In this document: positions 7,099 through 43,524 of the stretch, in pieces
How the letters are laid out: every line of letters begins with the position of its first letter
Position numbering within the stretch: position 1 is the stretch's first letter
NCBI GenBank assembly: GCA_963701015.1
Contig: OY969556.1
Span: 4,025,509 to 4,089,508, forward strand
Length of the DNA: 64,000 bases
Source: an uncultured Bacteroidota bacterium
GTDB lineage: Bacteria > Bacteroidota > Bacteroidia > Bacteroidales > DTGW01
Direction: 5' to 3'
Notes under the pieces: model-generated
The model's database searches: none
What the model saw: the letters and a program-made list of their open reading frames with translations, nothing else
Told to the model about the DNA's origin: nothing
Position numbers and translations under genes: made by a program

Positions 7099-8277
7099 TT
7101 ACTTTATTGATCCACCCCATATAACATTTTCGACATTGCGGGGTGGATGATTGCTTATTATTGTATAATTATTTAACCCGATGTTTTTGGATAATTTAAT
7201 TAATTGTTGCAAATCAGCAGGAGTAGCTGTTTCTTTTACCTCAAAAGCATGACTATTGTTTAAAACAAAATCAATTTCATGCCCGGTTTTCAAGGCATAA
7301 TAATTTAATATACCAAAATGATGCAACTGGTTGTAAATAGCATTTTCAAATAATACCCCACCCGAAACTTTTGCAAGTCGATTCAATATTCCATTGTCGC
7401 AAAAAAACACCTTTTTTGCCTTAACAATTTCACGGTCAGGGTTTTTTGACGTTACCGCAATACGTTGAATAATATAAGTTTTCTCAAACAATTCAATATA
7501 ATTTGTTACGGTTGGCTTAGACAAGCCTGTAAGAGCAGAAATTTTCGCAAAATCGAGTTTGGAAGCAGTACGAGAGGCCAACATGATTAATAAATTTCTT
7601 ATGTTGTTGGCATTCTTAAAATCAGAAAGCCACTTTATATCTATGTTAATGTACGAACTTATTAAATCTTCAAGAATATCTGTTTTTTGATTGATAGCAT
7701 CTGTTAGTACAACTTCGGGCATACCACCGAAATTTAAATATTCATTATAATATCCTTGTAGCCTTTCATAATCGTTTTGCTGAAATACCTGTTTGCTAAA
7801 GTTGAACGGAGTCCACGCAACTGATTTAAAAGTCAGGAATTCACCAAAGTCGAGTGGGTAAAGCTCAAATATTTTTTTCCTACCGGCTAATGATTCCGAA
7901 AAAAGGTTTTTTAAATAGTAAGAGCTCGAGCCTGTAATGATGAATTTAATACTATAATTGTCGTACAAATATTTTACAACGCTCGGCAGGTTTGGTAATA
8001 ATTGAGCCTCGTCAATTGCAATTGCCAATTGAGAGTCAAAATTTATGCCTCGCTGTTTTAGTGCCAATATTATGTTTTCGTAATTCGGGTCATTAAACAA
8101 ATTGCGGTTATCAAGTCGTTCTAAATCAAAATAAACACTGTTGTTTTGAAAATATTCGTCCAGCAATTTTTTTACCAGGGTAGTTTTACCAGTACGTCGT
8201 AAACCTGTAATTATGCTAACTTGTGGTTGTTTGGCATGTTCTACAAGCGCTGCATGTATTTTTCGTTCAAAAAACAT
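7099..8277 (-). CDS. AAA+ ATPase (AAA_14 + DUF4143 type)
   Basis: 392-aa ORF with Walker A (ITGLRRTGKTTL) and the architecture of the widespread DUF4143 ATP-binding proteins. Confidence 0.75.
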   Translation of the reverse strand: MFFERKIHAALVEHAKQPQVSIITGLRRTGKTTLVKKLLDEYFQNNSVYFDLERLDNRNLFNDPNYENIILALKQRGINFDSQLAIAIDEAQLLPNLPSVVKYLYDNYSIKFIITGSSSYYLKNLFSESLAGRKKIFELYPLDFGEFLTFKSVAWTPFNFSKQVFQQNDYERLQGYYNEYLNFGGMPEVVLTDAINQKTDILEDLISSYINIDIKWLSDFKNANNIRNLLIMLASRTASKLDFAKISALTGLSKPTVTNYIELFEKTYIIQRIAVTSKNPDREIVKAKKVFFCDNGILNRLAKVSGGVLFENAIYNQLHHFGILNYYALKTGHEIDFVLNNSHAFEVKETATPADLQQLIKLSKNIGLNNYTIISNHPPRNVENVIWGGSIK

Positions 8278-8598: not shown

Positions 8599-8663
8599 CA
8601 TTTAACACTACAAATTGAGAAACCGAGGAAATTTATTTATCTTTGTATATAAAGATAGAGTTT

Positions 8664-8966
8664 ATGCCTAAATTGTATGAATATTTCGGATTGATTTTTC
8701 TATTTTACTCTCAAGAGCATGAACCGATTCATGTTCATGGGAAATATCAAGATAAGGAAAGTAAAGCTGAGATTATCTTTGAGAATGGGAAGTTTAAGGA
8801 AATTGTAATTAAAGATGTTCCAGGTAAAGCTCCATTAGATACACAAAATCTTAAAAAGTTCAAAAAAGTAATTGAATTGTACCGTGATGATATAGTTAGA
8901 AAATGGATTGACTTTTTTGTTTATAATATTGAGTTTCCATCTGAAAAAATAACAAAAAAAATATAA
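8664..8966 (+). CDS. DUF4160-family small protein
   Basis: The ORF has an EHEPIHVHGKY motif. The ATG at 8664 is preferred over the TTG at 8643. It sits 2 nt from the downstream DUF2442-like ORF. Confidence 0.65.
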   Translation: MPKLYEYFGLIFLFYSQEHEPIHVHGKYQDKESKAEIIFENGKFKEIVIKDVPGKAPLDTQNLKKFKKVIELYRDDIVRKWIDFFVYNIEFPSEKITKKI

Positions 8967-11253: not shown

Positions 11254-11664
11254 AAACTAATCATTAATTTTAATGTTTAATATACGTTATATTATAATTT
11301 TAAATTAGAAACCTCTAAATATACAATTATTCGAATCACTTAAAAATCATTTGGGTAATAAAATGACTTTTTCCGATTACCCACATAATGTAATTTTTTA
11401 TTAAAATACTTGCTAATTCTGACACGGATATGTTGCCATTACATTGTCTTAAAATTCAAGATTCGTTGTAATTTCTTAGTTACGTCGTACTTTTCTTCCT
11501 GCTACTTGCGGTTTAATTACAACAAATATATACTATCCAGCAATTTGATAATGAAAACAACAGCAAATCATTTGCTTTTATTCTTCATCATTTTGGCTTA
11601 GACCAGTCGAAGCACAAATGGAAATTGGTAAACAGAAAAGGGATAGAAATAATGCACGAAGGCT

Positions 11665-11753
11665 GTCCACGGATTGTACGATACGAATGCCAATCTGCAC
11701 GAGCGGCGGTGACATATGCTGAAAGGTTGGCTTTGGGATGGTATATGTGGTGA
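11665..11753. repeat. 89-bp repeat family copy (inverted relative to 20579-20667)
   Basis: GTCCACGGATTGTACGATACGAATGCCAATCTGCACGAGCGGCGGTGACAT... aligns at about 75-80% with the reverse complement of 20579-20667. Confidence 0.75.
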
Positions 11754-12035
11754 CAAGATACTACTTTCAGTTGTGAACTAAGCAATGCTTTCTCAATACC
11801 AAAGGGAGTAATACGCTTCGTTAATTTGAAGGTAGATAGTTTGCATATTTAAGCTCGGCAACCCCGGGCTTTATATATTTTGAAATATTCCTTTACCAGC
11901 AAATAAACACGCAAAATTCGGTTTAAGTGTTATTTTGTTGGTTAAGGCACTTAAAACATTTCAATACCAACTGGTTACCTACTAACTTTTGAATTTCATT
12001 TTATAAGCCAAACTATAATTGCTCCTATTTCAAAG

Positions 12036-18774: not shown

Positions 18775-20112
18775 TTAAATAGTTTCTGAATTAATCCAAT
18801 CAATTTTTGGCATTATTACACCAGGCCTGTTGTCGGCATATTGTTTGTTAAGTCCATCAATGTTAATAATAGAAAAGGGATATATAACTTTTTCAAAGCT
18901 TATCCATTTTACATTATGTATTCCAATGGCAATATTAATAATATAGGAACCAGGTTTTAAAAAATTTGAAGGAATTATTGCAGTTGATTTATAATTTCCA
19001 ATTTCAAAAGTCTCTGTTCGTATAATATCATCATGAAAAGTTCTGAAAAGTGTAAGCCCACTTTTAGAATCAATTAAATCAAAACCTATTCTTAGCCCAC
19101 TTATTTTTTTCTTTACAAAATATTCATATTCAATAATTATTTCATCTTTTGTATAAAACTCATTAGCATTTGATCCTTTCTGATATATATTTAACTTTTT
19201 AAGTTTAAAATATTCATCATCTGGTAAATTTATTTCTGCCAAAGAATCTCTGCTTTCTTTATTATTATTGGCAGATGATAAATAATATTCAATACCTTCA
19301 TTAACATTACCATTATAAACTGTTGTTCCGTTTTGAAGTACATATAAATTATTGCATAAATTCGCAATAGCAGTCATATTATGGCTCACAAATATAACAG
19401 TTCGGCCTTGTCCCTGGCTTACTTCCTGCATTTTGCCAATGGCTTTTTTCTGGAACTCGGCATCGCCCACGGCCAATACTTCATCAACCACCAATATTTC
19501 CGGCTCCAAATGGGCTGCCACTGCAAAGCCCAGGCGCACGGTCATACCGCTACTGTAACGTTTTACGGGAGTGTCAATGTATTTTGCTACGCCGGCAAAA
19601 TCAACAATTTCGTCCAGCTTCTTGTCAATTTCCCACTTGCGCATGCCCATTATGGTTCCATTCACGTAAATGTTTTCGCGGCCGGTCATTTCGGGGTGAA
19701 AGCCCGTGCCAACTTCCAGTAGGCTGGCAATACGGCCTTTTACTTTTATACTGCCCGTGGTGGGAGAGGTTACCTTGGAGAGTATTTTTAGCAAGGTGCT
19801 TTTACCGGCACCGTTTTTGCCTATAATACCCAGCACTTCGCCCTGCTTAACTTCAAGGTTAATATCCTTTAAAGCCCAAACTAATTCGGCCTCCCCCCTG
19901 CCCCCTCCATGAGAGGGGGAGTTAGCCTTCCCCCCTTTGGGGGGATTGAGGGGGGCTAATATATTTGTCTGCCCTACTTTGGTATAAGGGTCGGGTTGCC
20001 CAAGCAGGTTCATGCGCCACCAGCGGTTAAGGTCGTGGCTAAGCGTGCCGGTGCCTATTTGCCCCAGGCGGTAAAGTTTCGAGAGGTTTTCAATTTTAAT
20101 TACGGTGGACAT
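18775..20112 (-). CDS. wzt: O-antigen/glycan ABC exporter ATP-binding protein Wzt, with a C-terminal glycan-binding-type domain
   Basis: Walker A GKNGAGKSTLLK, signature YSSGMTVRL and Walker B ILVVDE, plus an extra C-terminal domain of about 190 aa. It carries an in-frame GC-rich palindromic insertion at 19888-19956. Confidence 0.85.
   Translation of the reverse strand: MSTVIKIENLSKLYRLGQIGTGTLSHDLNRWWRMNLLGQPDPYTKVGQTNILAPLNPPKGGKANSPSHGGGRGEAELVWALKDINLEVKQGEVLGIIGKNGAGKSTLLKILSKVTSPTTGSIKVKGRIASLLEVGTGFHPEMTGRENIYVNGTIMGMRKWEIDKKLDEIVDFAGVAKYIDTPVKRYSSGMTVRLGFAVAAHLEPEILVVDEVLAVGDAEFQKKAIGKMQEVSQGQGRTVIFVSHNMTAIANLCNNLYVLQNGTTVYNGNVNEGIEYYLSSANNNKESRDSLAEINLPDDEYFKLKKLNIYQKGSNANEFYTKDEIIIEYEYFVKKKISGLRIGFDLIDSKSGLTLFRTFHDDIIRTETFEIGNYKSTAIIPSNFLKPGSYIINIAIGIHNVKWISFEKVIYPFSIINIDGLNKQYADNRPGVIMPKIDWINSETI
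19888..19956. repeat. REP-like double-hairpin unit inserted in frame within wzt
   Basis: CCCCCTC-catga-GAGGGGG and CCCCCC-ttt-GGGGGG followed by ATTGAGGGGGG. On the coding strand it is translated as ILAPLNPPKGGKANSPSHGGGRGEAE. Confidence 0.8.
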
Positions 20113-20775
20113 TGTGTAAATTACAAATTACAAAGGACAATTTGCAAAATTAGCGAATTTATACCAAAACGGAAAATGAAAAAGGGAAAAGGCCTCTCCC
20201 CAACGCTACTCCCTTCGGTCGTGAGAACGCTGCGCTTAGTTCTCCCAAGGAGAGGGAGAAAGATAAAAAATAATTTCTTAAAGTCCCTTTCTTTAGGAAA
20301 GGGTTGGGGATAGGCTACTTTAAAGAGCGGTGGCCAGATCATCCGCGTAAGCCAGCGTTGGCTTTGAGCGAGGGGTTTCGGATGATCTTGAATTTTACTC
20401 CCTTCGGTCATGAGAACGCTTCGCTAAGTTTTGCTTCTTTTTGTGTCAAGACAAAAAGAAGAGGAATAAAAGAAATTGGCCTCTCCCCAGCCCTCCCCTA
20501 AGGAGAGGGAGAAAGATAAAAAATTGTGAATTTACTTTTCTTTGCCTGCCATACATAGAAAAGGTAACAAAAGAAAAATCACTACGGATACCATCCCCAA
20601 GCCAATCTATTCGCACATGCCACCGCCACTTGTGCCGATTGGCTTTCGGATCGCACTATCCGTGGACGTCAACGCGCAAAGCAATTTAATGAATTATCTT
20701 CTTATCATGCGAAGCATGAAAGAGTGTGAGCCAGATCATCCGCGCGAGCCAGTGTTGGCTTTGAGCGAGGGGTAT
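20113..20775. repeat. GC-hairpin mosaic region upstream of wzt
   Basis: Contains a vestigial heptamer tract (20166-20192), the GATCATCCG...CGGATGATC long hairpin (twice), the 32-bp mini-insert (20208-20239, 20397-20428), hairpin+TTGGGG units and the 89-bp repeat (20579-20667). Confidence 0.85.
20145..20164 (-). promoter_or_regulatory. conserved promoter-like box (TAATTTTG on the coding strand), 33 nt upstream of the wzt ATG
   Basis: The plus strand reads CAAAATTAGCGAATTTATAC, so the coding strand carries TAATTTTG, which matches the Bacteroidota -7 consensus TAnnTTTG. The box recurs upstream of 5 other starts. Confidence 0.55.
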
Positions 20776-20841
20776 AGTTTCGAGAGGTTTTACCTTCGGT
20801 GAGAACGCTTCGCTTAGTTCAATTTTAATTACGGTTGACAT
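20776..20841 (-). pseudogene. duplicated 5' end of wzt (38 bp of CDS) interrupted by a 28-bp mini-insertion
   Basis: AGTTTCGAGAGGTTTT[ACCTTCGGTGAGAACGCTTCGCTTAGTT]CAATTTTAATTACGGTTGACAT compared with the uninterrupted 20075-20112. Confidence 0.9.
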
Positions 20842-20887
20842 TGTGTTAATTACAAATGACTAATTACTAATTACAAATTACAATTTA

Positions 20888-20907
20888 CAAAATTAGCGAA
20901 ATTATAA
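20888..20907 (-). promoter_or_regulatory. conserved promoter-like box copy
   Basis: CAAAATTAGCGAAATTATAA, 47 nt upstream of the relic wzt start. Confidence 0.45.
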
Positions 20908-20908
20908 T

Positions 20909-21141
20909 AAAACGGAAAATGGTTGGCGGAAAACGGTAAACGGAGTAAGGTAAAAGGGTAAACGGAGAAGGGAGAACGGAAAACGGTTGGCGGAAAACGG
21001 AAGAAGGGGAAAGGAAAACGGAAAACGGGGAATGGAGGAAGGAGGACGGAAAACGGTAAACGGAAAACGGTAAACGGAGAAGGGAAGACGGTAAACGGAG
21101 AAGGGAGAATGGAGGAAGGAAAACGAGGAATGGAGGAAGGA
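20909..21141. repeat. purine-rich heptamer minisatellite, array 1 (about 33 units)
   Basis: GGAAAAC/GGTAAAC/GGAGAAG/GGAGAAC units stay in a continuous 7-bp phase, with one 8-bp slip. Confidence 0.9.
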
Positions 21142-21183
21142 TAAATGAAACTGTCTTATTTGTTATTGAAACCCACCCCTTAG

Positions 21184-21199
21184 CCCCTCCCGGGAGGGG
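21184..21199 (-). terminator. candidate hairpin terminator or insulator (perfect 16-bp palindrome)
   Basis: CCCCTCCCGGGAGGGG lies 18 nt downstream of the stop of the 21218-22006 ORF. There is no clear U-tract. Confidence 0.3.
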
Positions 21200-21217
21200 A
21201 AATTGAATTATGTTTTT

Positions 21218-22565
21218 TCATTTTACCACCTCCCAATGCCCCCCTTTATCGGGGCCAATGCGTTTAATTGCTTTTCTGTCTTTTAATATTTTTAAATATC
21301 TTTGAATAGACCGTTCTGTAAGGGTCATTCTTTTTGCCAAATCGGAAGCTGATAATTGATTGTTTATTTTCAATAATTTAATTATTTCTATCTCATTTTC
21401 TACGACATTTTCTACGACATTTTCGGTGTCCTTATCGAATGTTTCAATATTTGCAGTCGTCTTTTGTTTGGTATAACTTAATTCAACAAAAAAACCGTTT
21501 GGAATTTCGTTGTAATCGAAATTCATTGTCGGGTATTGCCTAAGTTCATCACGTATCCGTTTAAACCCACTGCCATATTTTTCAATATCGCCGGTTAAAT
21601 AAAATGCTTCGGCCAGTAATTTATTTCGGGCATAGGCCTGATAATTATTGGTTTTTAAATCGGCAATAGTTAGATTGCCAAACAAAGTGCCGGGATTAAA
21701 AAAAGTAATGCTTTTGTCGAATATCTTAATTTGAATATCAACAGGGCTTAAATAATCGCGATGGATTAGCGAGTTTAATACCAATTCCCTGAGCGCTGGC
21801 AAGGGGTATTCAAATATTTCGGTTCGTTGTGTTGTTCTACCTGAAATTTCGAAAGCTACTTTTATTTGCGAAATTAAATATTTCATGGTTTCATCAACAG
21901 CCTCAAACAAGGGTAACCTCAACATTTTATCGTCAATAATAAGCGATGGGGTTTTAAAACGGCCTAAATGCACATTATACGAAATATCGGTTTTTGCAAA
22001 AAGCAAGTATGCTGCATTTGTAATTTTATTATTTGAAATGAACCTGAGTTTTTCGAGATTTTCAATCGTAGTCCCTTCTAAATTTAAAACGCCCGATAGT
22101 ATTTACTTTCTGTATAAATTTATCTACCTTTTTGAGGTCAATATCCACTAAATTTATATTATTTGCAGGATATGAATCCCATGAAACCTGCAGCGATTGC
22201 ATGCTTAAATCGGCTATCTCAAGTGCAGTCAACTGGTGATTCGAGTTTTTTACCCTTTTATAATAACGGCCTTTAAACGAAATTGGCTTTACCGGAAATT
22301 CATGAATAATTAAGGCAACTGTTTTTTTGCCTTTATAATTTATTAATTCAATATCAGGAATAATGGAGGGTTGTGTTTTTACTTTTATTTCGTTTATCCA
22401 TTTTTGAAAAGTTTCTTTGCCATACGTGAAGTTTTTATTAATACTTCCGTCATCGTTAATGCCAACAAATACTTTACCCCCTTTACAATTGGCATAGGCA
22501 ACCAAAGTTTCAATAACAGTATCGTTAAAGCCTGATTTATATTCTATGTGCTCGTTTTCAAGCAT
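21218..22565 (-). pseudogene. Schlafen/AlbA_2 + HATPase_c_4-like + wHTH putative regulator, split by a frameshift
   Basis: ORFs 22062-22565 (AlbA_2 N-terminus, HIEYKSGF...) and 21218-22006 join to read ...GRFKLEGTTIENLEKLRFISNNKITNAAYLLFAKTD if one T is removed from the run at about 22080-22090. Confidence 0.75.
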
Positions 22566-22598
22566 TAGGTAGTATTTTTTTTAACACTTTACCAATTA

Positions 22599-22618
22599 CA
22601 AAATTAGTGAATTTATAA
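22599..22618 (-). promoter_or_regulatory. conserved promoter-like box copy
   Basis: CAAAATTAGTGAATTTATAA, 34 nt upstream of the AlbA_2 ORF start. Confidence 0.5.
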
Positions 22619-22902
22619 TAAAACGGAAGACGGTAAACGGAGAAGGGAAAACGGAGAAGGGAGAACGAAAAACGGAGAATGGTAAACGGAGAAGGGAAAA
22701 CGGAAAACGAGGAATGGTAAACGGAGAAGGGAGAACGGAAAACGGAAAACGAAAAACGGAGAATGGTAAACGGAGAAGGGAGAACGGAAAACGGAAAACG
22801 GAAAACGGGGAATGGAAAACGGAGAAGGGAGAACGGAAAAAGGGAAACGGAGAAGGGAAATCGAAAAACGGAAAAGGGAAAACGGAGAAAGGAAAACGAG
22901 GA
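22619..22902. repeat. purine-rich heptamer minisatellite, array 2 (about 40 units)
   Basis: Same heptamer family, with a 49-bp higher-order repeat (GAGAATGGTAAACGGAGAAGGGAGAACGGAAAACGGAAAACGAAAAACG). Confidence 0.9.
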
Positions 22903-23099
22903 TAATTTTTTAAAAATTAGGGCAAAATTTCAAAATTATGCAAATTCGTATTCCACACTATTTACAGGTATTTGTCATCATTTACTTTAATTAAAAATAT
23001 CTATAGCTTTTTCAATTAAATAGGCTTTTATCTCTTCTTCATTAACAGCCGGTACAATATATTCAACAGGCTCGGAGTAATCAATGTCATTAAAATAGG

Positions 23100-23603
23100 C
23101 TAACTGGCACTGAATTGTTTCTCGGAAAATAAATCATTGTATATAGTTAAGGCCTTTTCTGAAACTTGTTTAATGGAATAAAATTTTCTTAAAATAAAAT
23201 ATAAATCAACATAATCTTTCCATTTCGATCGTCTGCTCATGGCAAATGCCTTCATAGCAGCTAATGTTAATAAATCAGGCATTTTTAAATACCCCTCAAA
23301 TTCACACGACGCAATTATTTGATAAGGGTACTGAAAAAAAGTAAATTTTACATCTTGAATAGTTACATTTAGCTGTTCATAAACCCTTCTGTTAACAATA
23401 TACTTTTTATGTAACGAATCAATCTTTTTAAGCAACCTTTTAGGTTGGATTTCATTTTGTTTAAACAAATCAAAATCAATAGATCTTCTATGGCCAATGT
23501 GTAATGCAATAGCAGTTCCTCCAACAAGATAAAATTCTCTTTTAAACAATTTCACCAATGGCAATAATTCTAATTGATCAGTATTTAAAATTTCTTTATG
23601 CAT
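23100..23603 (-). CDS. AbiEii/AbiGii-type nucleotidyltransferase toxin-like protein (3' end frameshifted)
   Basis: LVGGTAIALHIGHRRSIDFDLF motif. A further 37 codons (QLAYFNDIDYSEPVEYIVPAVNEEEIKAYLIEKAIDIFN*) continue in another frame down to 22987. Confidence 0.65.
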   Translation of the reverse strand: MHKEILNTDQLELLPLVKLFKREFYLVGGTAIALHIGHRRSIDFDLFKQNEIQPKRLLKKIDSLHKKYIVNRRVYEQLNVTIQDVKFTFFQYPYQIIASCEFEGYLKMPDLLTLAAMKAFAMSRRSKWKDYVDLYFILRKFYSIKQVSEKALTIYNDLFSEKQFSAS

Positions 23604-23871
23604 ATCGTGAGAAAAGAATAAAAAAGTAATTATAAATTTCAGGAAAGAAATTCATTTTCTTCCTACCTTGCATATTATTAAACACTTTTGCCACGTTTTC
23701 AATACCCATTATTGAAAAAAGTTTATGCACTGCATCTAATGAGCCATAATTTAAAATGTGTTCTACCAATAATTCGTGGCTTATATTCTCCTTTTCTTTT
23801 TCGGGTGTGTACCAAAAAAGGGAGCTGTTTTGGCGTATAAATGCTTTTAGTTCTTCAGTATTTTCAGGCAT
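23596..23871 (-). CDS. small partner protein of the AbiEii-like gene (putative antitoxin)
   Basis: 91-aa ORF overlapping the downstream NTase gene by 8 nt. Confidence 0.45.
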   Translation of the reverse strand: MPENTEELKAFIRQNSSLFWYTPEKEKENISHELLVEHILNYGSLDAVHKLFSIMGIENVAKVFNNMQGRKKMNFFPEIYNYFFILFSRYA

Positions 23872-23898
23872 CTAGATAGTATTAGAAATATAAAATTA

Positions 23899-24194
23899 CT
23901 AAAATATACTTGTAAACATTTTATATAAGGTAATTTTGCCTGCCCCGTTACGGCCAGTTATGCCCACACGGTCGTTTGTTTTATTTCAAAATTTAAATCC
24001 TTTAAAGCCCAAAAATCTTCCATTTCATCGTTGGCAATAAGCTGTCCGCCTTTAAATATTTGGCGGGTTTTAGATGCTATTTGCCGGACTTTATTGGCCA
24101 GAACATCGCGCAAAGCGGTATAACGCTCGTGCTTTTCGTGGCCTATAATATAACTTTTGCCCAGGTTCTCGGCTTTAATTACTGTATGGCTCAT
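23899..24194 (-). pseudogene. relic of a second, divergent wzt/tagH-type ABC ATPase gene (N-terminal about 90 codons, frameshifted and truncated)
   Basis: Encodes MSHTVIKAENLGKSYIIGH...FWALKDLNFEIKQ, then after a 1-nt shift DRVGITGRNGAGKITL (Walker A). Homology ends where the AbiE-like pair begins. Confidence 0.85.
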
Positions 24195-24240
24195 GAAGAC
24201 AATTACTAATTACTTATCACAAATGTCAAATGACAATTTG

Positions 24241-24260
24241 CAAAATTAGTGAATTTATAA
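24241..24260 (-). promoter_or_regulatory. conserved promoter-like box copy
   Basis: CAAAATTAGTGAATTTATAA, 47 nt upstream of the relic wzt' ATG. Confidence 0.5.
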
Positions 24261-24280
24261 CAAAACAGAAAATTGTAGTC

Positions 24281-24550
24281 GGAAGACGGAGAAGGGAAAA
24301 AGGTGGACGGAAAACGGAAAACGGAGAATGGAAAACGGAGGATGGTGGACGGAAAACGGAGAAGGGAAAACGGAAAACGGAGAATGGTAAACGGAGAAGG
24401 GAGAATGGTAAACGGAGAAGGGAGAATGGTAAACGGAGAAGGGAGAATGGTAAACGGAGAAGGGAGAACGGAAAACGAAAGACGGAGAATGGTAAACGGA
24501 GAAGGGAGAACGGAAAACGGAGAAAGGAAAACGGAAAACGGGGAAGAGAA
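24281..24550. repeat. purine-rich heptamer minisatellite, array 3 (about 38 units)
   Basis: Includes 3 perfect copies and 1 near-perfect copy of the 21-bp unit GGTAAACGGAGAAGGGAGAAT at 24386-24469. Confidence 0.9.
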
Positions 24551-24835
24551 ATAATATTTGTGAGATTGTTGTAATTTGAAACCCACCCTTTAGCCCCTCC
24601 CGGGAGGGGAAATATTTTTTCGTATCACACAAAGTGTGAAAGAGCGATGGCTTGATCATCCGAGCGAGCCTTAAGAACCACCCATTAGCCCCTCCTTTAA
24701 AAGGAGGGGAAACTGATTTGTTAACTTTACTCGACTTCGTCTAATGAACTAAGCGAAGCGTTCTCACGAGTTTTACGAGTAGCTTAGCCTTTGGCGTTCT
24801 CACGACCAAAGGGAATAAATCGCTTCGCTTAGACA
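24551..24835. repeat. conserved 285-bp GC-hairpin block (copy a)
   Basis: Collinear with 28126-28410, and partly with 26221-26345 and 21142-21215. It contains CCCCTCCCGGGAGGGG, TCACAC-aaa-GTGTGA, GATCATCCG... and CCCCTCCTTTAAAAGGAGGGG. Confidence 0.9.
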
Positions 24836-25400
24836 GCCCGCAGCTGAAATTGTATTTTTTTTATCACACTTTGTGTGAAAGAGCGTGAACCAGATCATCC
24901 GCGCGAGCCAGCGTGGGCATTGAGCGAGGGGTTTCGGATGATCTTGAATTTTACTCCCTTCGGTCATGAGAACGCTTCGCTAAGTTTTGCTTCTTTTTGG
25001 TTCATGCCAAAAAGAAGGGGAATGAATGCAAAAGATTTGCTGTTGTATTTATTATATGCAATGTTGGCTAGTAGCGATTTATTTTTCTTTGCTTGCCATG
25101 CAAAGAAAAGGTAACAAAACTTAGCGATATGGTTTACTCACTGTGGTCATGAGAACGCGTTGCTAAGTTCATGAACGAAGGGAGCAAAGGGGTTGGGGAT
25201 AGGCCTTTTGGCTTTCGGACCGCACCATCTGTGGACTCCCTACGCGCAAAGCTCAAAACTCTTTACAGTTTACAACCATTTACCGTTAACCGTTTTCCTT
25301 TTATCCGTCAAATGGTTCAAGCCAAAAATAAGAGGAATGCTGGAAAAAGCTTTATTTGTAAATTAAAATCAGCTTTAACCGCCTATCGAGGAAATGAAGT
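24836..25400. repeat. GC-hairpin mosaic region
   Basis: Same modules as 20113-20775, in similar order. Confidence 0.85.
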
Positions 25401-25426
25401 TGAATTTAACCATTTTCCCATTATTG

Positions 25427-25663
25427 TTAATATAACAATGCTTCAACTAAAATATCTTCATCAAGAATTTCCCAATGAATCCCTTCGCCACCACCAATAA
25501 ACCTATAATTTTCCCTATCTTTTTTGGAAGCATCGCGCAAACTGGGAAACCAATCAATTGGTACTGAAAGTTCTCTTCCATCGTCAAGTAAAATATGCAT
25601 CATTAAGTCTGAAAACCAAACTTTTGTTGCATTAGCCGATTTAATAATTGTTGTGATATTCAT
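25427..25663 (-). CDS. DUF2442-family small protein
   Basis: 78-aa ORF (ILLDDGRELSVPIDWFPSLRDAS...GIHWEILDEDI) that overlaps the upstream DUF4160 ORF. Confidence 0.65.
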   Translation of the reverse strand: MNITTIIKSANATKVWFSDLMMHILLDDGRELSVPIDWFPSLRDASKKDRENYRFIGGGEGIHWEILDEDILVEALLY

Positions 25664-25877
25664 TCCATTTAATATTAAGAAAGTCTAAATTTTGAATTAT
25701 TAAATTTCTTATTTCATGAATCTCTGAAGAATTAAAATGTTTTGATTTAATAATTTCAACAGGATTTAATAAAAATTTTGCGGTACCTTCTGCTTTTTCA
25801 ATATGAATATGTGCAGGAGAATGATCATTAACATAAAAGAAAAACCTGTATCCATTAATATTTAATATTGTTGGCAT
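25641..25877 (-). CDS. DUF4160-family small protein
   Basis: 78-aa ORF with a HSPAHIHIEKAEGTAKF motif. Confidence 0.65.
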   Translation of the reverse strand: MPTILNINGYRFFFYVNDHSPAHIHIEKAEGTAKFLLNPVEIIKSKHFNSSEIHEIRNLIIQNLDFLNIKWNEYHNNY

Positions 25878-25905
25878 AACAATTTAGATATTGTTTGACA
25901 AAACT

Positions 25906-25925
25906 CAAAATTAGCGAATAAAATA
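25906..25925 (-). promoter_or_regulatory. conserved promoter-like box copy (proximal)
   Basis: CAAAATTAGCGAATAAAATA, 29 nt upstream of the DUF4160 ATG. Confidence 0.5.
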
Positions 25926-25968
25926 ACTTATTGCCAATGACTAATTACTGATTATAAATGATAATTTT

Positions 25969-25988
25969 CAAAATTAGCGAATTTATAA
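25969..25988 (-). promoter_or_regulatory. conserved promoter-like box copy (distal, tandem)
   Basis: CAAAATTAGCGAATTTATAA, directly abutting array 4. Confidence 0.45.
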
Positions 25989-25989
25989 T

Positions 25990-26222
25990 AAAACGGAAAA
26001 AGGGAAACGCAGTAAGGAAAAAGGGAAAACGGAGAAGGGAGAAGGGAGAAAGGAAAACGGGAAAGGAAAACGGAAAACGGAAGACGGAAGACGGAAAACG
26101 GGGAATGGAGAATGGTAAACGGAGAACGGAAAACGGAAGACGGAAGACGGAGAAGGGAAAACGGAAGACGGAAGACGGAGAACGGAAAAAGGAAAAAGGA
26201 AAATGGAAAACGGGGAAGAGAA
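25990..26222. repeat. purine-rich heptamer minisatellite, array 4 (about 33 units)
   Basis: Same heptamer family (GGAAGAC, GGAAAAC, GGAGAAG ...). Confidence 0.9.
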
Positions 26223-26900
26223 ATAATATTTGTGAGATTGTTGTAATTTGAAACCCGCCCCAACCCCTCCCGGGAGGGGAAATATTTTTTCGTATCACAC
26301 GAAGTGTGAAAGAGCAGCGGCCGGATCATCCGCGCGAGCCAGCGTTGGCTTTTAGCGAGGGGTTTCGGATGATCTTGAATTTTTGCTTCTTTTTGGTTCA
26401 GGCCAAAAAGTAGAGGAATAAATGAAATTGGCCTCTCCCCAGCCCTCTCCTAAAGAGAGGGAGTAGGAAAGTATTAAAAAATTTGGTGCAAAATAAATTA
26501 TTTCATAAAACTTCTTTCTTTTGGAACTTAGCGAAACGGTCTCATGACCGAAGTGAGTAAAGGGGTTTGGGATAGGCACTTTGGCTTTCAGATCGCACTA
26601 TCCGTGGACGACAGCGCGCAATACTCAAGACTTTTAACTGTATAAAACCATTTACCATTCACCGTTTTCCTTTTATCTGTCAAATGGTTCAAGACAAAAA
26701 GAAGAGGAATAAAATTTAGGAGAATTGTGCTCTCAATCCCCCAGCCCCCTTTTCAAAGGGGGAAAGCCCTGCTTTACAGTATAAAACCATTTACCTTTCT
26801 CCGTTTTCCTTTTATCCGTCAAATGGTTCAGGCCAAAAAGTAGAGGAATGCAAAGCTTTTGTAATACGCGTTTAAACTATCTTCATGAACGAAGTGTATA
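26223..26900. repeat. conserved hairpin block (copy b) plus GC-hairpin mosaic
   Basis: 26223-26345 matches 24553-24670. It is followed by an empty site for the 32-bp mini-insert (T-run 26380-26384), hairpin+TTGGGG units and two AACCATTT...AAATGGTT units. Confidence 0.85.
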
Positions 26901-26967
26901 AACTCGTACAAGTTGGACATTATGTATAAATCACTAACATCTATCAACAAGCAACTTACAACCTCTT

Positions 26968-27837
26968 TTATACGGTATCAATAAAACTTCTTTCAGTACG
27001 GTTAAAGATAATTATACCTAAAAACAAAACCACCAGGGTAAAAACTGTAGTGTATATTATCCCGGTTGAACTATGGGTGCCTGAACCCAGGAATCCGTAT
27101 TTAAATGTTTCTAAAATTGGTGTCATAGGATTAGCCATAATGAAAGGGCGTAATTTGCCATGAATCATAGAAACAGGGTAAATTACAGGGGTTGCATACA
27201 TAAGTAATTGAACTCCAAATGTTATAAGAAATGTCAGGTCGCGGTATTTAGTTGTTAGCGAAGTGAAAATAATCCCGAATCCCAAGCCAAGTCCACCCAT
27301 CAATAAAATAAGATACGGTGTTAACAACATATAAATATTGGGATGAATTGACAAATTGTGTTTTAATAAATAATAAATAAATACAGCTAAAAACAAACCA
27401 AATTGGATGCCAAATTTTATTAATCCCGATAAAACTTTTGACATTGGTGAAACAAGCCTTGGGAAATAGACCTTACCAAAAACATTGGCATTATCGGTAA
27501 ATGTCTTAGATGTTATACTAAAGCATTCTGAAAAATAATTCCAAACAATAATACCTGCAAGATAGAATAGCATCATGGGAATACCATCGGTAGGCATTTT
27601 GGCAATATTACCGAAAACCACAATATATATAGCCGTGGTTAAAATAGGTTGAAGTATAAACCAAATTGGACCAAGAACGGTTTGTTTATAAACCGTAACA
27701 ATGTCACGTTTAACAAACATGGTAAGTAAGTCACGATACTGCCAAATTTCTTTCAGGTTAATATCGAGAAGATGTTTCTTAGGCTGTATTATTTGAGTCC
27801 ATTGCTCTTCCGTAGTATTAAATTTTTCTTCGGGCAT
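26968..27837 (-). CDS. wzm: ABC-2 type glycan/O-antigen exporter permease Wzm
   Basis: 289-aa ORF with 6 predicted TM segments and a typical N-terminus (...EIWQYRDLLTMFVKRDIVTVYKQTVLGPIWFILQP). Confidence 0.85.
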   Translation of the reverse strand: MPEEKFNTTEEQWTQIIQPKKHLLDINLKEIWQYRDLLTMFVKRDIVTVYKQTVLGPIWFILQPILTTAIYIVVFGNIAKMPTDGIPMMLFYLAGIIVWNYFSECFSITSKTFTDNANVFGKVYFPRLVSPMSKVLSGLIKFGIQFGLFLAVFIYYLLKHNLSIHPNIYMLLTPYLILLMGGLGLGFGIIFTSLTTKYRDLTFLITFGVQLLMYATPVIYPVSMIHGKLRPFIMANPMTPILETFKYGFLGSGTHSSTGIIYTTVFTLVVLFLGIIIFNRTERSFIDTV

Positions 27838-27886
27838 TCTATTTTAAATTACCTATTACAAATGATTGTTAACAAATGATAAATTG

Positions 27887-27906
27887 CAAAATTAAGGAAA
27901 TTAAAC
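27887..27906 (-). promoter_or_regulatory. conserved promoter-like box copy
   Basis: CAAAATTAAGGAAATTAAAC, 50 nt upstream of the wzm ATG. Confidence 0.5.
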
Positions 27907-27918
27907 CAAATCTGACAA

Positions 27919-28125
27919 TGGAAAAGGGAGTTCGGAAAACGGAAGACGGAAAAGAGAGAAGGGAAGTCAATTACAAATTACGAATGACAAATTGGAAAAC
28001 GGAAAACGGAAGACGGAAGACGGAGAAGGGAAAACGGATAAGGGAAATCAATGACAAATTACAAATTACGGATGACAAATTGGAAAACGGAAGACGGAGA
28101 AGGGAAAACGGAGAACGGGAAAAAG
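27919..28125. repeat. heptamer minisatellite, array 5 (about 29 units, interleaved with A/T heptamers)
   Basis: GGAAAAC/GGAAGAC/GGAGAAG runs are interrupted twice by ATTACAA-ATTACGA-ATGACAA type heptamers, in the same 7-bp phase. Confidence 0.9.
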
Positions 28126-28410
28126 AAATAAGATTTGTGAGAGGGGTGTAATTTGAAACCCACCTCAACCGCTTCCGGGAGGGGAAATAATTTTTCGTAT
28201 CACACGAAGTGTGAAAGAGCGCGAGCCTGATCATCCGCGCGAGCCTTAAGAACCACCCCTTAGCCCCTCCTTTTAAAGGAGGGGAAACTGATTTGTTAAC
28301 TTTACTCGACTTCGTCTCATGAACTAAGTGAAGCGTTCTCACGAGTTTTACGAGTAACTTAGCAACGCGTTCTCACGACCAAAGGGAGTAAAACGCTTCG
28401 CTAAGTTCTA
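28126..28410. repeat. conserved 285-bp GC-hairpin block (copy c)
   Basis: Collinear with 24551-24835. Confidence 0.9.
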
Positions 28411-28639
28411 AGGGAGAAAAGCCTTGCCTTACAATATAAAACCATTTACCGTTCACCGTTTTTCTTTTATCCGTCAAATGGTTCAAGCCAAAAAGAAGAG
28501 GAATGTTAGCAAAAGCTTTAATACTTTATTGGTATGGAATTTATTTTTTATTTTGTAACACACGCTAGTAGTGTCACCACAGCTACTATCAGTTGATGCT
28601 TTGTACGTAATGCAAATTAATTTCCACTCCCGGGAAGGG

Positions 28640-29770
28640 TTAGAGTAGTGGTTGTTCTAAATCTAATACTTCTTTTCGAATCCATATTTGGAAAAGGGGA
28701 TCAGAGAAAACATAACCTTTATTAGTCTTCAAAATCAAACCTTTATTCAATAGAGCATGTATGGTACGTGAAATATTAATCAATTTTACATCAATAGTCG
28801 AATAGGGTTTTAAGCTTTCAGCCAAAGCCAATAAAACTGTCCGTTGCTCACGACTGCCAGATATGTCTTCCCATAATTTTTCGAGATAACCTTTTTCTGA
28901 ATCCAAAAGTAAGGACAGAATTAAATCATAAGCTTTTTGGGTATCGTTGGGTAATTCATTAACCAATAGTAAATGCTGTAGCACAAGTGATGAATAGTAT
29001 GGGTGCCCTCCGGTAAAATCGAGTAATTTATCTATTAGCAGATTATTTACCTTAATTCCCGATAGGTTGAGTTTTGAAGTATAATATTTTTTATAGGTTT
29101 TAGAGTCAATACAGCCTATGTGAACAATACGGGCAAATCGATAAAAAGGCGATTTTGCAGTGGTAAACAATTGGTTCATCACCGATTCGTAGCTTCCTGA
29201 AAAAATATAACTAACATTTTTTTGGGTTTGCATTTTAGCCCGCAGCATTTTTGCAACGTCCGTTCCGCCAAGTTTCTCAATGTCCCCAAATTCATCAAGC
29301 CCTATAATTAATTGTTTTTGGTATTTTAATGAAAACTTATCGGCAAAGTCAATGCTGTTTTCAAGTAATTCCCAAGGATCACTTTCGGGTTTGGCATATT
29401 TCAGTACAAAATCAAATTCTTCAATAGTACTGCGTAATTCAACATTTTTAATCAGTTCGCCTAAGTTCTTTTTTACCAATTGAATAATATTTTCGAGTTT
29501 CTTATTTTCTAAAATCTTGGAAGTTAATTGTTCTGATAGTCTCGTAATGTCGCGGGTAGTAAAAATATCAAGGTATGCAGTAAATTCCCCTTCATTCTTC
29601 AATAAGTCCAATATTTTAAATACCAGTGAGGTTTTACCAAAACGTCTGGGCGCTATTAAAACAACACTTTGTCCATTTTTCAATAAATTGCAAAGTTCAG
29701 CGATTTCTTTTGTACGCCCAATAAAATCAATACCCGTTACCGGTTTCCCTACTTGTAATGAATGTGTCAT
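28640..29770 (-). CDS. AAA+ ATPase (archaeal-ATPase/Orc1-like P-loop protein)
   Basis: 376-aa ORF with Walker A (IAPRRFGKTSL) and Walker B (IIGLDEF). Confidence 0.6.
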   Translation of the reverse strand: MTHSLQVGKPVTGIDFIGRTKEIAELCNLLKNGQSVVLIAPRRFGKTSLVFKILDLLKNEGEFTAYLDIFTTRDITRLSEQLTSKILENKKLENIIQLVKKNLGELIKNVELRSTIEEFDFVLKYAKPESDPWELLENSIDFADKFSLKYQKQLIIGLDEFGDIEKLGGTDVAKMLRAKMQTQKNVSYIFSGSYESVMNQLFTTAKSPFYRFARIVHIGCIDSKTYKKYYTSKLNLSGIKVNNLLIDKLLDFTGGHPYYSSLVLQHLLLVNELPNDTQKAYDLILSLLLDSEKGYLEKLWEDISGSREQRTVLLALAESLKPYSTIDVKLINISRTIHALLNKGLILKTNKGYVFSDPLFQIWIRKEVLDLEQPLL

Positions 29771-29942
29771 AGTTTCATTTATTATTCAACAAATATAATA
29801 CAAAAAGTGTATGGTACAAAAAGTGTATGGTACAAAAAGTGTCTTTATAAAATTTGTGGAATAGTAAAAGGTTTAATACAATAAAAAAATAGGGCAAAAA
29901 ATTCAATATTTCTGTAATATATAGAAAGGCAGGGAAAGTAAT

Positions 29943-30485
29943 TTATTTATTGATAAGTATTTCTGAATTCTCAACAAAATTCGATTCCTGGATTCGTCTT
30001 AAACTTGAAGGGTGTATTTCTACCAGCAAAGATTGATTAATTGCATCGATTTGCAATAATGCTCTTTTCTTTCCTTTGTAAGTTACTAATGTACCACAGA
30101 ATCCGGTTAAAGCACCGCGATAGACTTCTACCATCTCCCCGTATTCAAATAAATCATAGCTAACTTCAAATTTCTCTGTAGATTTTAAAAGCATTTTCAG
30201 GAATTCAATTTGATAGTCGGGTATTTTTGCCGGTTGAAATTCGAAGGATACAAAACCCGCAACACCGTCAATTGCTCTTACAATATGATATTTCTTATAG
30301 TTGGTGCGAACAAAAACATACGATCGGAATAAAGGCATTTCAACCATTTTTTTTCTGTCATGCCACTGGCGAAGGGTTTTTTGTAATGGCAAATAGGCTT
30401 CAATGCCATGCTCACATAACCGGGCATAAGCAACCTTCTCACTTCGCGACCGCACATAAATTGCATACCAATGAAGTTGCAACAT
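29943..30485 (-). CDS. UpxY-family (NusG/RfaH-like) transcription antiterminator
   Basis: WYAIYVRSRSEKVAYARL...PLFRSYVFVR plus a C-terminal KOW-like region. The ATG at 30485 is preferred over the longer ORF. Its position at the head of the glycan locus fits the family. Confidence 0.8.
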   Translation of the reverse strand: MLQLHWYAIYVRSRSEKVAYARLCEHGIEAYLPLQKTLRQWHDRKKMVEMPLFRSYVFVRTNYKKYHIVRAIDGVAGFVSFEFQPAKIPDYQIEFLKMLLKSTEKFEVSYDLFEYGEMVEVYRGALTGFCGTLVTYKGKKRALLQIDAINQSLLVEIHPSSLRRIQESNFVENSEILINK

Positions 30486-30637
30486 ATAACTAATTTTGGG
30501 GATGGTAAATATAAGTAATAATGTGCTGATTTGCCAATGAAACAATGCGCCAATGATTAAGTAGTAATTGAATTAGGATATAGAAAATTCGCTTACTGTT
30601 ATCATTTTAATTTACAATTAGTGCATTAGCAAATTGT

Positions 30638-41333: not shown

Positions 41334-43524
41334 ATGGTTACTAAGGAAGATCAGTCGCTGCTTGAATATTTGAAGAAATATTTTGGGTTCTCCAGTTTTA
41401 AAGGAAATCAGGAAGCAATTATTCACAATGTGCTAGAAGGGAATGATACTTTTGTACTTATGCCAACAGGCGGAGGGAAATCATTGTGTTATCAGTTACC
41501 GGCTTTACTATTGGAAGGTACAGCTGTAATTATTTCTCCACTTATTGCCTTAATGAAAAATCAGGTTGATGCTATGCGCAGCTTTAGCGAGGAAGATGGA
41601 ATTGCACATTTTATGAATTCGTCTTTAACTAAAGCCCAGATAAATAAGGTTAAAGAAGATATTCTGTCAAAAAAAACCAAGCTATTGTATGTTGCGCCTG
41701 AGTCGTTAACGAAAGAAGAAAATATTCAATTTTTAAAACAAGTTGTTGTTTCTTTTTATGCAGTCGATGAGGCCCATTGTATATCAGAATGGGGGCATGA
41801 TTTCAGACCTGAATACAGGCGTATTCGGCCAATTATTAATCAAATAGCTAACGCTCCAATTATGGCGCTTACTGCAACAGCTACGCCAAAGGTACAAAGC
41901 GATATTCAAAAAACACTTGAAATGCTTGATGCCAAAGTGTTTAAATCTTCGTTTAACAGACCTAATTTATACTATGAAATAAGGCCAAAAATTGAAGCTT
42001 CAAAACAAATTATAAAATATATAAAAAATAACCACAACAAATCAGGAATAGTTTATTGCTTAAGCCGCAAAAAGGTTGAGGAACTTACTGAATTGCTGCA
42101 AGTGAATGGAATAAGGGCTTTGCCTTATCATGCGGGAATGGATGCAACTACACGTGCCACTAACCAGGATAAATTTCTGATGGAAGAAGCCGAAGTTATT
42201 GTTGCCACTATTGCATTTGGAATGGGAATTGATAAACCCGATGTAAGATTTGTTATTCATTACGATATTCCAAAAAGCCTTGAAGGATATTACCAGGAAA
42301 CAGGCCGTGCCGGTCGCGATGGTGGTGAAGGCCAGTGTATAACTTTTTACCGTTATCAGGATATTCAAAAGCTTGAAAAATTTATGCAGGGTAAACCGGT
42401 TGCTGAACAGGAAATTGGTAAACAATTGCTGCTCGAAACGGTTTCGTATGCTGAAACATCTCTTTGCCGGAGACGTTTTCTCTTGCATTACTTTGGAGAA
42501 ATATACGACCGTGAAAATTGCGAATGTTGCGACAATTGCGTTCACCCAAAAGTACAATTCGATGGTAAGGAATATGTTTTGCAGGTGCTGGAATGTGTGC
42601 TTGCTGTAAAAGAAAAATTTAAATCAGAACATATTGCCAACGTTTTGGCGGGGAATCTTAATACAGCAATTAAATCATACAAACACAACAAGCTCGAAAT
42701 ATTCGGTGCTGGAGGCGAAAAGAATGTGAAATTTTGGAATGCTGTTATAAGGCAAATGCTGGTTTCGCAATTGTTGCTAAAAGATATTGAAAATTACGGA
42801 CTTTTAAGATTGTCAGAAGCCGGGCTTAAATATTTAGATAACCCGGAAACACTCATGCTTTCGGAGGACCGATGATTATGAAGTTGAAAATGATGAAGAA
42901 CAAACCGTAGCCCTTTCAAAAACAACAACGGTTGACGAAGAGCTTTTGCACATTTTAAAAGATTTACGAAAGAAAATTGCCAAACAGAAGAACCTGCCGC
43001 CTTTTGTAATTTTTCAGGATCCTTCGTTGGAAGATATGGCCATCCAATACCCAATCAATAATGAAGAACTGCAAAATATTGTAGGCGTAGGTACCGGTAA
43101 AGCTCAAAGATATGGAAAGGAGTTTACTGAAATTATTAAAGCCTATGTTGAGGAAAAAGAAATAATCAGGCCTCAGGATATGGTGGTTAGGTCGGTTGTG
43201 AATAAATCGGGAATGAAAGTGTTTATTATTCAAAGCATCGACCGTAAAATGAACCTCGAAGATATTGCTTCGTCTAAAGGAATTACTTTAAATGACTTAT
43301 TGACCGAAATAGAAGCCATTGTTAACAGTGGAACGAAGCTGAATATCGATTATTATATTGATGAAATTTTAGACGAAGAACACCAGCAGGAAGTTTACGA
43401 CTATTTTCGCGAAGCTGAATCGGAATCTGTTGCCGATGCTTTAGCTGAATTAGGCGATGATGAATATTCCGAAGAAGATTTACGGTTAATGCGAATTAAG
43501 TTTCTGTCGGAAATGGGCAATTAA
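41334..43524 (+). pseudogene. recQ: ATP-dependent DNA helicase RecQ, interrupted by a +1 frameshift near 42870-42875
   Basis: ORF 41334-42875 holds the helicase core plus the RQC/Zn motif (CRRRFLLHYFGE...CCDNC). ORF 42946-43524 holds the HRDC region. Reading frame 2 is open from 42838 and gives ...DYEVENDEEQTVALSK...LHILKDLRKK. Confidence 0.8.

Follow-up and report, generated by a model that had tools for sequence, protein, structure and literature searches.

Where does a noncoding block that recurs in front of one gene after another come from, and does it constitute an element in its own right? The question is raised by a 64,000-nucleotide stretch of the genome of an uncultured Bacteroidota bacterium (contig OY969556.1 of assembly GCA_963701015.1, positions 4,025,509 to 4,089,508; hereafter the window, numbered from its first letter), in which a polysaccharide locus runs on the minus strand from a NusG/UpxY-like gene (30545-29943) down to ~0.2 kb and includes wzm, wzt, methyltransferases, acyltransferases and glycosyltransferases. 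Between the NusG-like gene and the intact wzt lies a set of accessory genes: ATPase_2, DUF4160/DUF2442, a wzt fragment (wzt′), an AbiEii pair and a split AlbA_2 gene. Five gene starts in this part of the locus are each preceded, in the direction of transcription, by an array of 7-nt units, a short conserved box and an A/T-rich leader that ends at the ATG (copies A to E, numbered from the wzt side; a vestigial copy F precedes the intact wzt). A preliminary description, made from the letters and the open reading frames (ORFs), combined these parts with GC-rich palindromes into one portable unit of hairpin, spacer array and promoter. We find a different origin to be the probable one, in which the "module" arose when the promoter region of the operon, joined to a slippage-prone repeat, was duplicated locally, and is not a new mobile element.

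Five Heptamer Arrays Precede Successive Gene Starts

The five C/T-rich arrays are co-oriented, are read on the minus strand and lie between 20.9 and 28.1 kb of the window. Tandem Repeats Finder (TRF) reports them with a period of 7, plus its multiples 14, 21, 35 and 49, at 20909-21125, 22620-22898, 24286-24546, 25990-26213 and 27920-28128, and a period-7 sliding scan of the 64 kb detects no comparable tract besides these five. Furthermore, a degenerate pattern of five successive heptamers has 42 matches in the 64 kb, all on the minus strand and all within arrays A-E, against none expected and none in 100 shuffles. Repeat finding, period scan and pattern search therefore agree on the pyrimidine-strand heptamer arrays that had been described at the five starts.

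When parsed into words, the arrays are built mostly from CCGTTTT, CCCTTCT, CCGTTTA, CCGTCTT, CCATTCT and CCGTTCT. Array A comprises 32 units and, together with a hairpin at 21166-21203, spans 20909-21203 (TRF; repeat family D9); array B has 38 units (22620-22907, with a further TAATTTTG at 22931-22938), array C has 39 (24262-24557) and array D has 31 (25990-26229). Array E (27920-28128; family D6) consists of three sub-arrays of 5, 7 and 8 units, which are separated by two leader-like A/T heptamer blocks at 28056-28087 and 27968-27999. The six words and the motif CCGTTCT-CCCTTCT-CCGTTTA-CCATTCT are common to the arrays, while the order of units and the local expansions differ. Array C, for example, contains five copies of a 21-nt higher-order unit (CCCTTCT CCGTTTA CCATTCT, coded (bce)x5) and array D three of another (CCGTCTT CCGTCTT CCGTTTT, coded (dda)x3). 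Between paralogous copies, both the number and the order of heptamers thus vary.

All five arrays are intergenic when judged against genes with Pfam or homology support, and the only ORFs that overlap them traverse the repeats themselves and have no other support. Such ORFs are present on the plus strand (22714-22990, 24230-24574, 25958-26251 and 27876-28151) and on the minus strand (24206-24659, 25945-26329 and 27971-28342); they are 63-134 aa long and encode 7-residue repeats rich in K/R/E/G or in F/P/S, on both strands. A coding role was considered and rejected, since a 7-nt period cannot be divided by 3 and stop codons are lacking from pyrimidine-rich sequence by composition, so that the plus-strand ORFs are merely low-complexity K/R/E/G-rich repeats. 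The ORFs running through the arrays are composition artefacts, yet similar ones are annotated in public assemblies.

Box and Leader Resemble a Promoter Region

In the direction of transcription, each array is followed by the box. Its 19-nt form, TATAAATTCRCTAATTTTG, is found with at most one mismatch at 20145, 20888, 22599, 24241 and 25969, whereas 0.57 matches are expected in the window even when three mismatches are allowed. Written over 21 nt, the box follows the pattern [AG][TG]TATAAWTTCRCTAATTTTG, which is exactly three heptamers long (ATTATAA ATTCRCT AATTTTG). The box of copy E has diverged (GGTTTAATTTCCTTAATTTTG, 27887-27907) but still ends in TAATTTTG, which closes the box in six of six copies (A-F).

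The leaders between box and ATG are 28-49 nt long and 74-83% A+T, with units such as TAAATTG, TAATTTG and TAATTAG. A box and a 46-nt heptameric leader make up 20842-20908 in copy A (box 20888-20908) and 24195-24261 in copy C (box 24241-24261). The corresponding regions are 22566-22619 in copy B (box 22599-22619, 33-nt leader), 27838-27907 in copy E (49-nt A/T leader) and, in vestigial copy F, 20113-20192, where ~3 heptamers precede the box (20145-20165) and a 32-nt heptameric leader. Copy D (25878-25989) is more elaborate: its first box (25969-25989) lies 91 nt from the ATG, and downstream of it come a heptameric leader, at a spacing of exactly 63 nt (9x7) another, incomplete box, TTATTCGCTAATTTTG (25906-25921), and a 28-nt leader. 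From the last array unit through the box into the leader, the 7-nt register is unbroken. The conserved box and A/T heptamer leader of the preliminary description are therefore real features of the copies, except that the E box has diverged and the B leader is not heptameric.

In Bacteroidota promoters, the −7 consensus is TAnnTTTG, or more precisely TAHHTTTG, whose G occupies position −5, and the −33 element is TTTG (PMC6847099). The −7 motif is matched exactly by TAATTTTG. Indeed, TAnnTTTG also stands 18-57 nt upstream of ~17 of 51 other putative genes in the window, mostly the first of runs, so the geometry of the module box is an ordinary one and its distance to the ATG is typical for the window. 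On this consensus, the box is a plausible Bacteroidota sigma-A promoter. Transcription is predicted to start ~5 nt after the G of TAATTTTG, which would give a 5′ untranslated region of 24-45 nt, unstructured, A/U-rich and without a Shine-Dalgarno sequence. Bacteroidetes lack Shine-Dalgarno sequences, and initiation is tuned by open structure and upstream adenines (PMC6847099); copies A, E and F have an adenine at position −3.

Box and Leader Correspond to Spacers in Related Loci

For comparison, four loci (L153, L155, L157 and L159) were retrieved through Wzm homologues of 79-84% identity, and the uniqueness of words was judged among 163 fetched loci. The spacer between wzm and wzt contains TTTAAATTCGCTAA in L157 and TAATTTGCAATTGGTAATTTGTCATTGG in L155. 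The word AAATTCGCTAA occurs in the wzm-wzt spacer of L157/L158 and in three viral loci that had been fetched by the box pattern, and in no others of the set; GTAATTTGTCATTG, a word of the array E block, is elsewhere confined to the wzm-wzt spacer of L155/L156, and TTTAAAATAGWATG is confined to the wzm upstream regions of L155/L156 and the window. The copy E box is matched by the region upstream of wzm in L155, both ending in TTTAAAATAG-ATG (alignment A3), and the wzt-type (A2) and wzm-type (A3) alignments agree with the word matches. A version of the A/T heptamer leader with two to three units is already present in L155.

Because these pieces hold corresponding positions in the relatives, box and leader appear to be native and not imported, being the operon's own upstream region of wzt in copies A, B, C, D and F and of wzm in copy E. 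What had been called a promoter unit is thus well described in so far as the box fits the −7 consensus and the block has been copied before different genes, but its homology to native spacers argues that it is not foreign. In the tight spacers of the relatives there is merely a 7-nt near-miss, TAATTTG, compared with the canonical 8-nt TAATTTTG of the window. From this difference we infer that promoter strength may have been gained, or kept, once the operon was broken up.

The Same Junctions Receive Accessory Genes without Arrays

In L155 and L157, the layout is the ordinary one: NusG, wzm, a spacer of 60-90 nt and wzt. In L155, L157 and L159, a NusG gene stands upstream of wzm as it does in the window. 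L153 and L159, the two closest relatives, both have accessory genes at the same junctions as the window; in L153, wzm and wzt are separated by a broken AlbA_2 gene (6649-7998), and in L159, wzm is preceded by a PIN pair and followed by a PDDEXK_3 gene. Neither the heptamer array nor the box was found at this locus in any of L153, L155, L157 and L159. Since L153 and L159 gained their accessory genes without arrays, arrays are not needed for insertion. The comparison suggests that the NusG-wzm-wzt stretch is a recurrent accessory-gene insertion site throughout the lineage, and that the arrays are specific to the lineage of the window genome.

Behind copy A lies a relic wzt start (20771-20841), which consists of 8 codons, a mini-element of ~30 nt and 17 nt more of wzt, and shares 91% identity with the start of wzt in L153. 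The mini-element (cttagcgaagcg.tctcaccgaaggtaaaa) follows wzt codon 8 both in the relic (20788-20817) and in L153 (8499-8528), where translation shows that it throws the N-terminal codons out of frame. The start of the intact wzt (20112; gene at 18775-20112, identified by Pfam ABC_tran and Wzt_C and by translation comparison) lies behind copy F and is free of the mini-element. Copies A and F share wzt 5′ codons (family D12), and copy C precedes the other wzt fragment, wzt′ (23958-24194), the 78-codon N-terminal part of a divergent ABC ATPase gene (ORF and translation comparison; family D19). The genes served were thought to be unrelated to one another; this is so for AlbA_2, DUF4160 and wzm, but a wzt 5′ end follows each of the copies A, C and F.

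The remaining genes that stand behind a copy are wzm itself (26968-27837; Pfam ABC2_membrane) behind E, the DUF4160/DUF2442 accessory pair (25427-25877; Pfam) behind D, and the AlbA_2/HATPase_c_4/HTH regulator gene (21218-22565; Pfam) behind B. The last is split into two ORFs (22565-22062 and 22006-21218). As the split is borne out on the independent contig L160, and the gene is also broken in L153, the AlbA_2 regulator is probably a decaying gene rather than the product of a sequencing error.

GC-Rich Palindromes Form a Separate Layer

The GC-rich palindromes had been taken as the first part of the unit. Copy B lacks the palindrome block, however, copy A has a single hairpin, and the long block is common to C, D and E only, so that a 5′ module does recur in five places as array, box and leader but not with palindromes throughout. 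Moreover, the palindromic families are dispersed separately, being present without arrays at 6.4-6.9 kb and 11.7 kb of the window and in L153. Because the palindromes are missing from copy B and present elsewhere without arrays, they form a layer of small dispersed repeats independent of the arrays, and a single three-part unit is not supported.

These families are nested into one another. Before array E, the nested block extends over 28139-28405 (D16, D8 and D4; hairpin CCCCTCCCGGAAGCGG at 28169-28184). The gap between wzm and DUF4160 (26230-26967) holds a nest with two D5 repeats and with D4, D7, D13 and D14, and the gap between DUF2442 and wzt′ (24558-25426) holds D5, GC-rich palindromes and a hairpin at 24594-24609. 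A further nest, with D7, D10, D11, D13, D14, D17 and D18, fills 20193-20770. The block upstream of array C (24594-24788) and that of E are 93% identical over 195 nt (family D8), and the RNA of 24560-24990 folds strongly (z = −5.5). A search of the whole window against Rfam 15 gave no match above the gathering score. The hairpin CCCCTCCCGGGAGGGG (26264-26279) was considered as a sense-strand intrinsic terminator and rejected, since a T-run follows it on the antisense (plus) strand only.

Family D5 (28410-28505, with more copies at 26755-26850, 26616-26711, 25244-25339 and ~6448-6503) itself contains an inverted heptamer mini-array of 4-5 units, which over stretches of 23-34 nt shows 76-88% complementarity to the main arrays. 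D5 is placed downstream of gene ends, with its mini-array between AACCATTT and AAATGGTT, and could base-pair, within read-through RNA, with main arrays at a distance of 430-940 nt.

Similar small repeats are seen at other positions. Nests at 6380-6900 and 11650-11830 of the window and at 4306-4410 of L153 lie within DNA of otherwise 30% G+C, and L153 has three tandem copies of a 34-nt palindromic repeat member. Within the wzt coding sequence, a GC-rich palindrome on the minus strand (19890-19960) is translated in frame (...LAPLNPPKGGKANSPSHGGGRGEAE...). This stretch, which is common to L153 (~8655-8700), lengthens a variable linker relative to the Wzt of L155, L157 and L159. In L153, an 8-nt tandem repeat, GATGGGTT, of about four copies directly follows the wzm stop codon (6238-6270), a position that corresponds to the repeat nest of the window.

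A Probable Local Copy of the Operon's Own Promoter Region

Together, these observations support a reading in three layers. The first would be the native box and leader of wzt, or of wzm in copy E, whose homology to the relatives is visible in the alignments and whose promoter function is predicted. The second would be the CCGTTTT-family repeat, presumably grown by replication slippage directly upstream of this promoter. The third consists of the nests of GC-rich palindromic repeats, which appear to have accumulated in the same long intergenic gaps. The block of array, box and leader, at times with the first wzt codons, would then have been copied within 8 kb, most likely through unequal or homologous recombination between arrays of 200-290 bp together with allele exchange at wzt. 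The outcome would be that each inserted gene set, and the cut-off wzt, stands behind a copy of the predicted promoter. Since three of the six copies precede wzt starts, we favor local copying within a hotspot, and we judge this account as a whole to be the probable one. Copy E, which contains two partial copies of array plus leader, fits such copying as well. The arrays are most likely by-products, that is, slippage- and recombination-prone spacers and not parts of the promoter.

Several points weigh against this reading. The homology of the spacers to those of the relatives rests on short A/T-rich words of 11-14 nt. Promoter activity rests on the match to the −7 consensus; no copy has a −33 TTTG 19-21 nt upstream of the −7 element, and a TTTG precedes the −7 box in copies C and F only, with 12 nt between its end and the box. 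In F. johnsoniae, the −33 motif is described as weak (PMC6847099). The recombination route is read from the pattern of shared flanks, and it accounts only in general terms for the precise placement of the block before AlbA_2 and DUF4160. Copy counts cover the 64-kb window of a source chromosome of 4.47 Mb. Finally, all five arrays are co-oriented with their genes, which would also fit a strand-specific function.

Alternative Explanations

The strand-specific function that comes to mind is Rho loading. RNA of the arrays has 31-41% C and 8-10% G (a C/G ratio of 3-5) and ~23-29 YC dinucleotides per 78 nt, the minimum free energy of array C RNA is 0 kcal/mol over 275 nt, and in five of five arrays the C-rich strand is the sense strand. 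Such C-rich, G-poor and unstructured RNA, 200-290 nt long on read-through against the ~80 nt or more of a rut site, has the composition of rut sites. The arrays might accordingly be selected Rho-loading (rut-like) insulators, at which transcription terminates in order to restart at the promoter while a NusG/UpxY-modified polymerase passes; a NusG-family gene does head the locus, and few sense-strand intrinsic terminators are predicted between the units. We nevertheless regard this explanation as unlikely. C-richness and lack of structure are automatic for any polypyrimidine repeat. If the five arrays are copies of one another, they count once, so their shared orientation amounts to one observation and not to five independent ones.

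Arrays elsewhere also speak against selection for one strand. Comparator arrays (L162, L163, L165 and L166) were found through the peptides that arrays encode, by which the arrays of the window, whose ORFs are not called as genes, were not retrieved. In L162, an array of ~300 nt of the same word family lies upstream of a gene with its purine strand as the sense strand; that of L165 (~250 nt) is antisense to both flanking genes, and that of L166 (~140 nt) lies between convergent genes. The wider class was sampled by a degenerate five-heptamer scan of genome contigs from many phyla. Among the matches listed, 39 of 43 arrays at lower-GC loci are intergenic, with 14 co-oriented with the downstream gene and 24 opposed to it, and the class thus has no orientation preference.

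It is rather improbable that the block is, as the preliminary description proposed, a self-contained portable element of hairpins, array and promoter that moves before genes genome-wide. It does precede AlbA_2, DUF4160, wzm and wzt, and the genome carries mobile small palindromic repeats. The AlbA_2 gene of L153, the closest relative, has no array-box-leader block upstream, so the block arrived after the gene, as a portable element would. Within the 64 kb, however, there are no copies beyond the 8-kb cluster. Pfam detects no integrase, transposase or RAYT domain among the ~51 ORFs of at least 100 aa in the window, and no terminal inverted repeats bound module B; for C and D, the sole long-range inverted match is that of the D5 mini-array to the main array. 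The hairpins are missing from copy B and present elsewhere without arrays, and homologues of box and leader occur in the native spacers of relatives. On the evidence of these 64 kb, the claim of a portable, dispersed unit is therefore disfavored.

Wider searches point in the same direction. No metagenome match was obtained either for the array-box junction or for a 20-nt higher-order motif of the arrays, and a viral scan with the array motif was likewise without a match. A BLAST search of phages with module C found no match. In the viral scan, the 18-nt box had 31 matches on A/T-rich contigs, of which one was inspected and had no array; these matches were treated as chance.

Alternatively, the arrays could serve as homology-based attachment sites, through which cassette circles excise and re-integrate in a RecA-dependent manner without an integrase. 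Arrays of 200-290 bp lie as direct repeats on both sides of every gene set, and left and right flanks are paired in different ways: C and E share the left block, and copies A, B, C and F represent all four combinations of box variant (A or G) and next base. This mosaic evidence concerns very few sites, however, and neither circles nor presence/absence variants were observed, while L153 and L159 gained genes at the same junctions without any array. We therefore give attachment sites little credence. The two functional ideas can be joined into an active "terminate, restart and shuffle" cassette system, in which the arrays act as Rho insulators and as homology tracts without a dedicated recombinase, and such a system is likewise doubtful at best.

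Collapsed or expanded repeats, for which one could cite that independent de Bruijn contigs break inside the arrays, are a most improbable source of the structure, because three contigs of an independent Logan assembly (run ERR11718638) match the window at 26271-28023, 21395-22693 and 22771-24403 with 100% identity and without gaps; in E, B and C they cross the junctions from array through box and leader into the gene, and in array B also the far end, although they end inside arrays and so cover the junctions and not whole array lengths. The possibility of an assembly artefact, which the preliminary description had itself raised, is thereby answered.

Other Features of the Locus

The antiterminator gene at the head of the polysaccharide locus (29943-30545) is identified by Pfam NusG with E = 3.5e-19. 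Between it and wzm lies the ATPase_2/AAA accessory gene (28640-29770; Pfam), which is absent there in L155. A perfect 16-nt tandem repeat, TACAAAAAGTGTATGG, of 2.8 copies with 100% match (29799-29842) lies between these two genes, just upstream of the ATPase_2 start codon. The AbiEii toxin gene (Pfam) and a 91-aa ORF form an accessory toxin-antitoxin-like pair at 23100-23871. Across the relatives, the NusG-wzm and wzm-wzt junctions hold a PIN pair, PDDEXK_3, DUF6266 and AlbA_2. Outside the cluster, recQ is distributed over two ORFs 160 nt apart, with the DEAD, Helicase_C and RQC domains on 41334-42875 and an HRDC/HTH tail on 43036-43524; this is either a split gene or a frameshift.

Implications

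If the block was indeed copied locally from the operon's own promoter region, the locus would illustrate clearly how the genes of a polysaccharide-export operon can stay expressed after the operon has been broken up. It would also indicate that heptamer slippage can shape the whole tract from promoter to start codon in a single 7-nt register. In this Bacteroidales lineage, accessory genes, toxin-antitoxin-like ones among them, would have landed repeatedly at the NusG-wzm-wzt junctions. Were the more doubtful shuffling system true instead, a host operon would tolerate repeated invasion by accessory genes, with recombination re-equipping each cassette and each cut-off gene. For annotation, the arrays call for caution: long "ORFs" through them are spurious, and short-read assemblies break there. 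What is new here is an unusually dense case of known parts, and no new class of mobile element is established.

Comparison with Known Systems

Pneumococcal BOX elements, with their variable number of boxB copies, and neisserial Correia elements are modular and may carry promoters or internal tandem units; their copies are spread over the whole genome and have conserved ends or inverted repeats as boundaries. By description, the window block resembles them in being composite and intergenic, in having an internal tandem part that varies, and in that it may influence how neighboring genes are expressed. It differs, again by description, in being local, in lacking terminal inverted repeats and in having a native promoter. 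Integron cassette arrays offer another likeness, namely small accessory genes in the same orientation, toxin-antitoxin-like pairs included, with a recurring separator. The window, however, has neither an integrase nor an attC-like imperfect palindrome at cassette ends, and its separator, placed 5′ of each gene, consists of a tandem repeat and a promoter.

The leader has a counterpart in the forward-oriented heptamer repeats that MacGregor (2015) described just upstream of start codons (PMC4679880). Such TAACTGA-type direct repeats occur in Beggiatoaceae, cyanobacteria and Flexibacter litoralis (PMC4679880). The window leader (TAATTTG/TAATTAG/TCATTTG) is likewise a short forward heptamer repeat between promoter and ATG, in a genome without Shine-Dalgarno sequences, but its unit is a different one and, within the 64 kb, it is confined to one or two native leaders.

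A BLAST search of a plasmid collection with module C returned only heptamer arrays in two 2.17-Mb records of Neisseria gonorrhoeae, both of which bear a plasmid label in the collection. In one of them, NZ_CP119142.1, an array of the same word family, with ~55 CTGTTTT/CCGTTTT units, begins at the T-run of a terminator-like hairpin (L164 1410-1790, corresponding to ~1984980-1985360).

The arrays themselves belong to a described class, the long heptanucleotide simple-sequence repeats (LSSRs): they consist of head-to-tail 7-nt units, are longer than expected by chance and are located between genes. According to Mrazek et al. (2007), as summarized in PMC4679880, long heptanucleotide repeats are the most abundant class among the longer simple-sequence repeats of prokaryotes and are ascribed to polymerase slippage. 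Mixed heptamer assemblages are reported in intergenic regions of the Bacteroidetes Gramella forsetii, Aequorivita sublithincola and Elizabethkingia anophelis, and in Elizabethkingia near-identical assemblage-bearing intergenic regions are flanked by partly identical ORFs, for which a role in rearrangement was suggested (PMC4679880). Since long heptanucleotide arrays, including those of duplicated Bacteroidetes intergenic regions, are thus on record (PMC4679880), the module does not represent an undescribed class of element.

Like the LSSRs and heptamer assemblages, the window arrays contain tens of intergenic head-to-tail copies of mixed related words and are missing at the same locus in the closest relatives, and the high-identity stretches of the Elizabethkingia ORFs are paralleled by the wzt 5′ ends of the window. 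Unlike the described assemblages, the window uses words of the CCGTTTT family and not TAACTGA, packs five arrays into 8 kb, and has each array fused in register to a copy of one promoter and leader.

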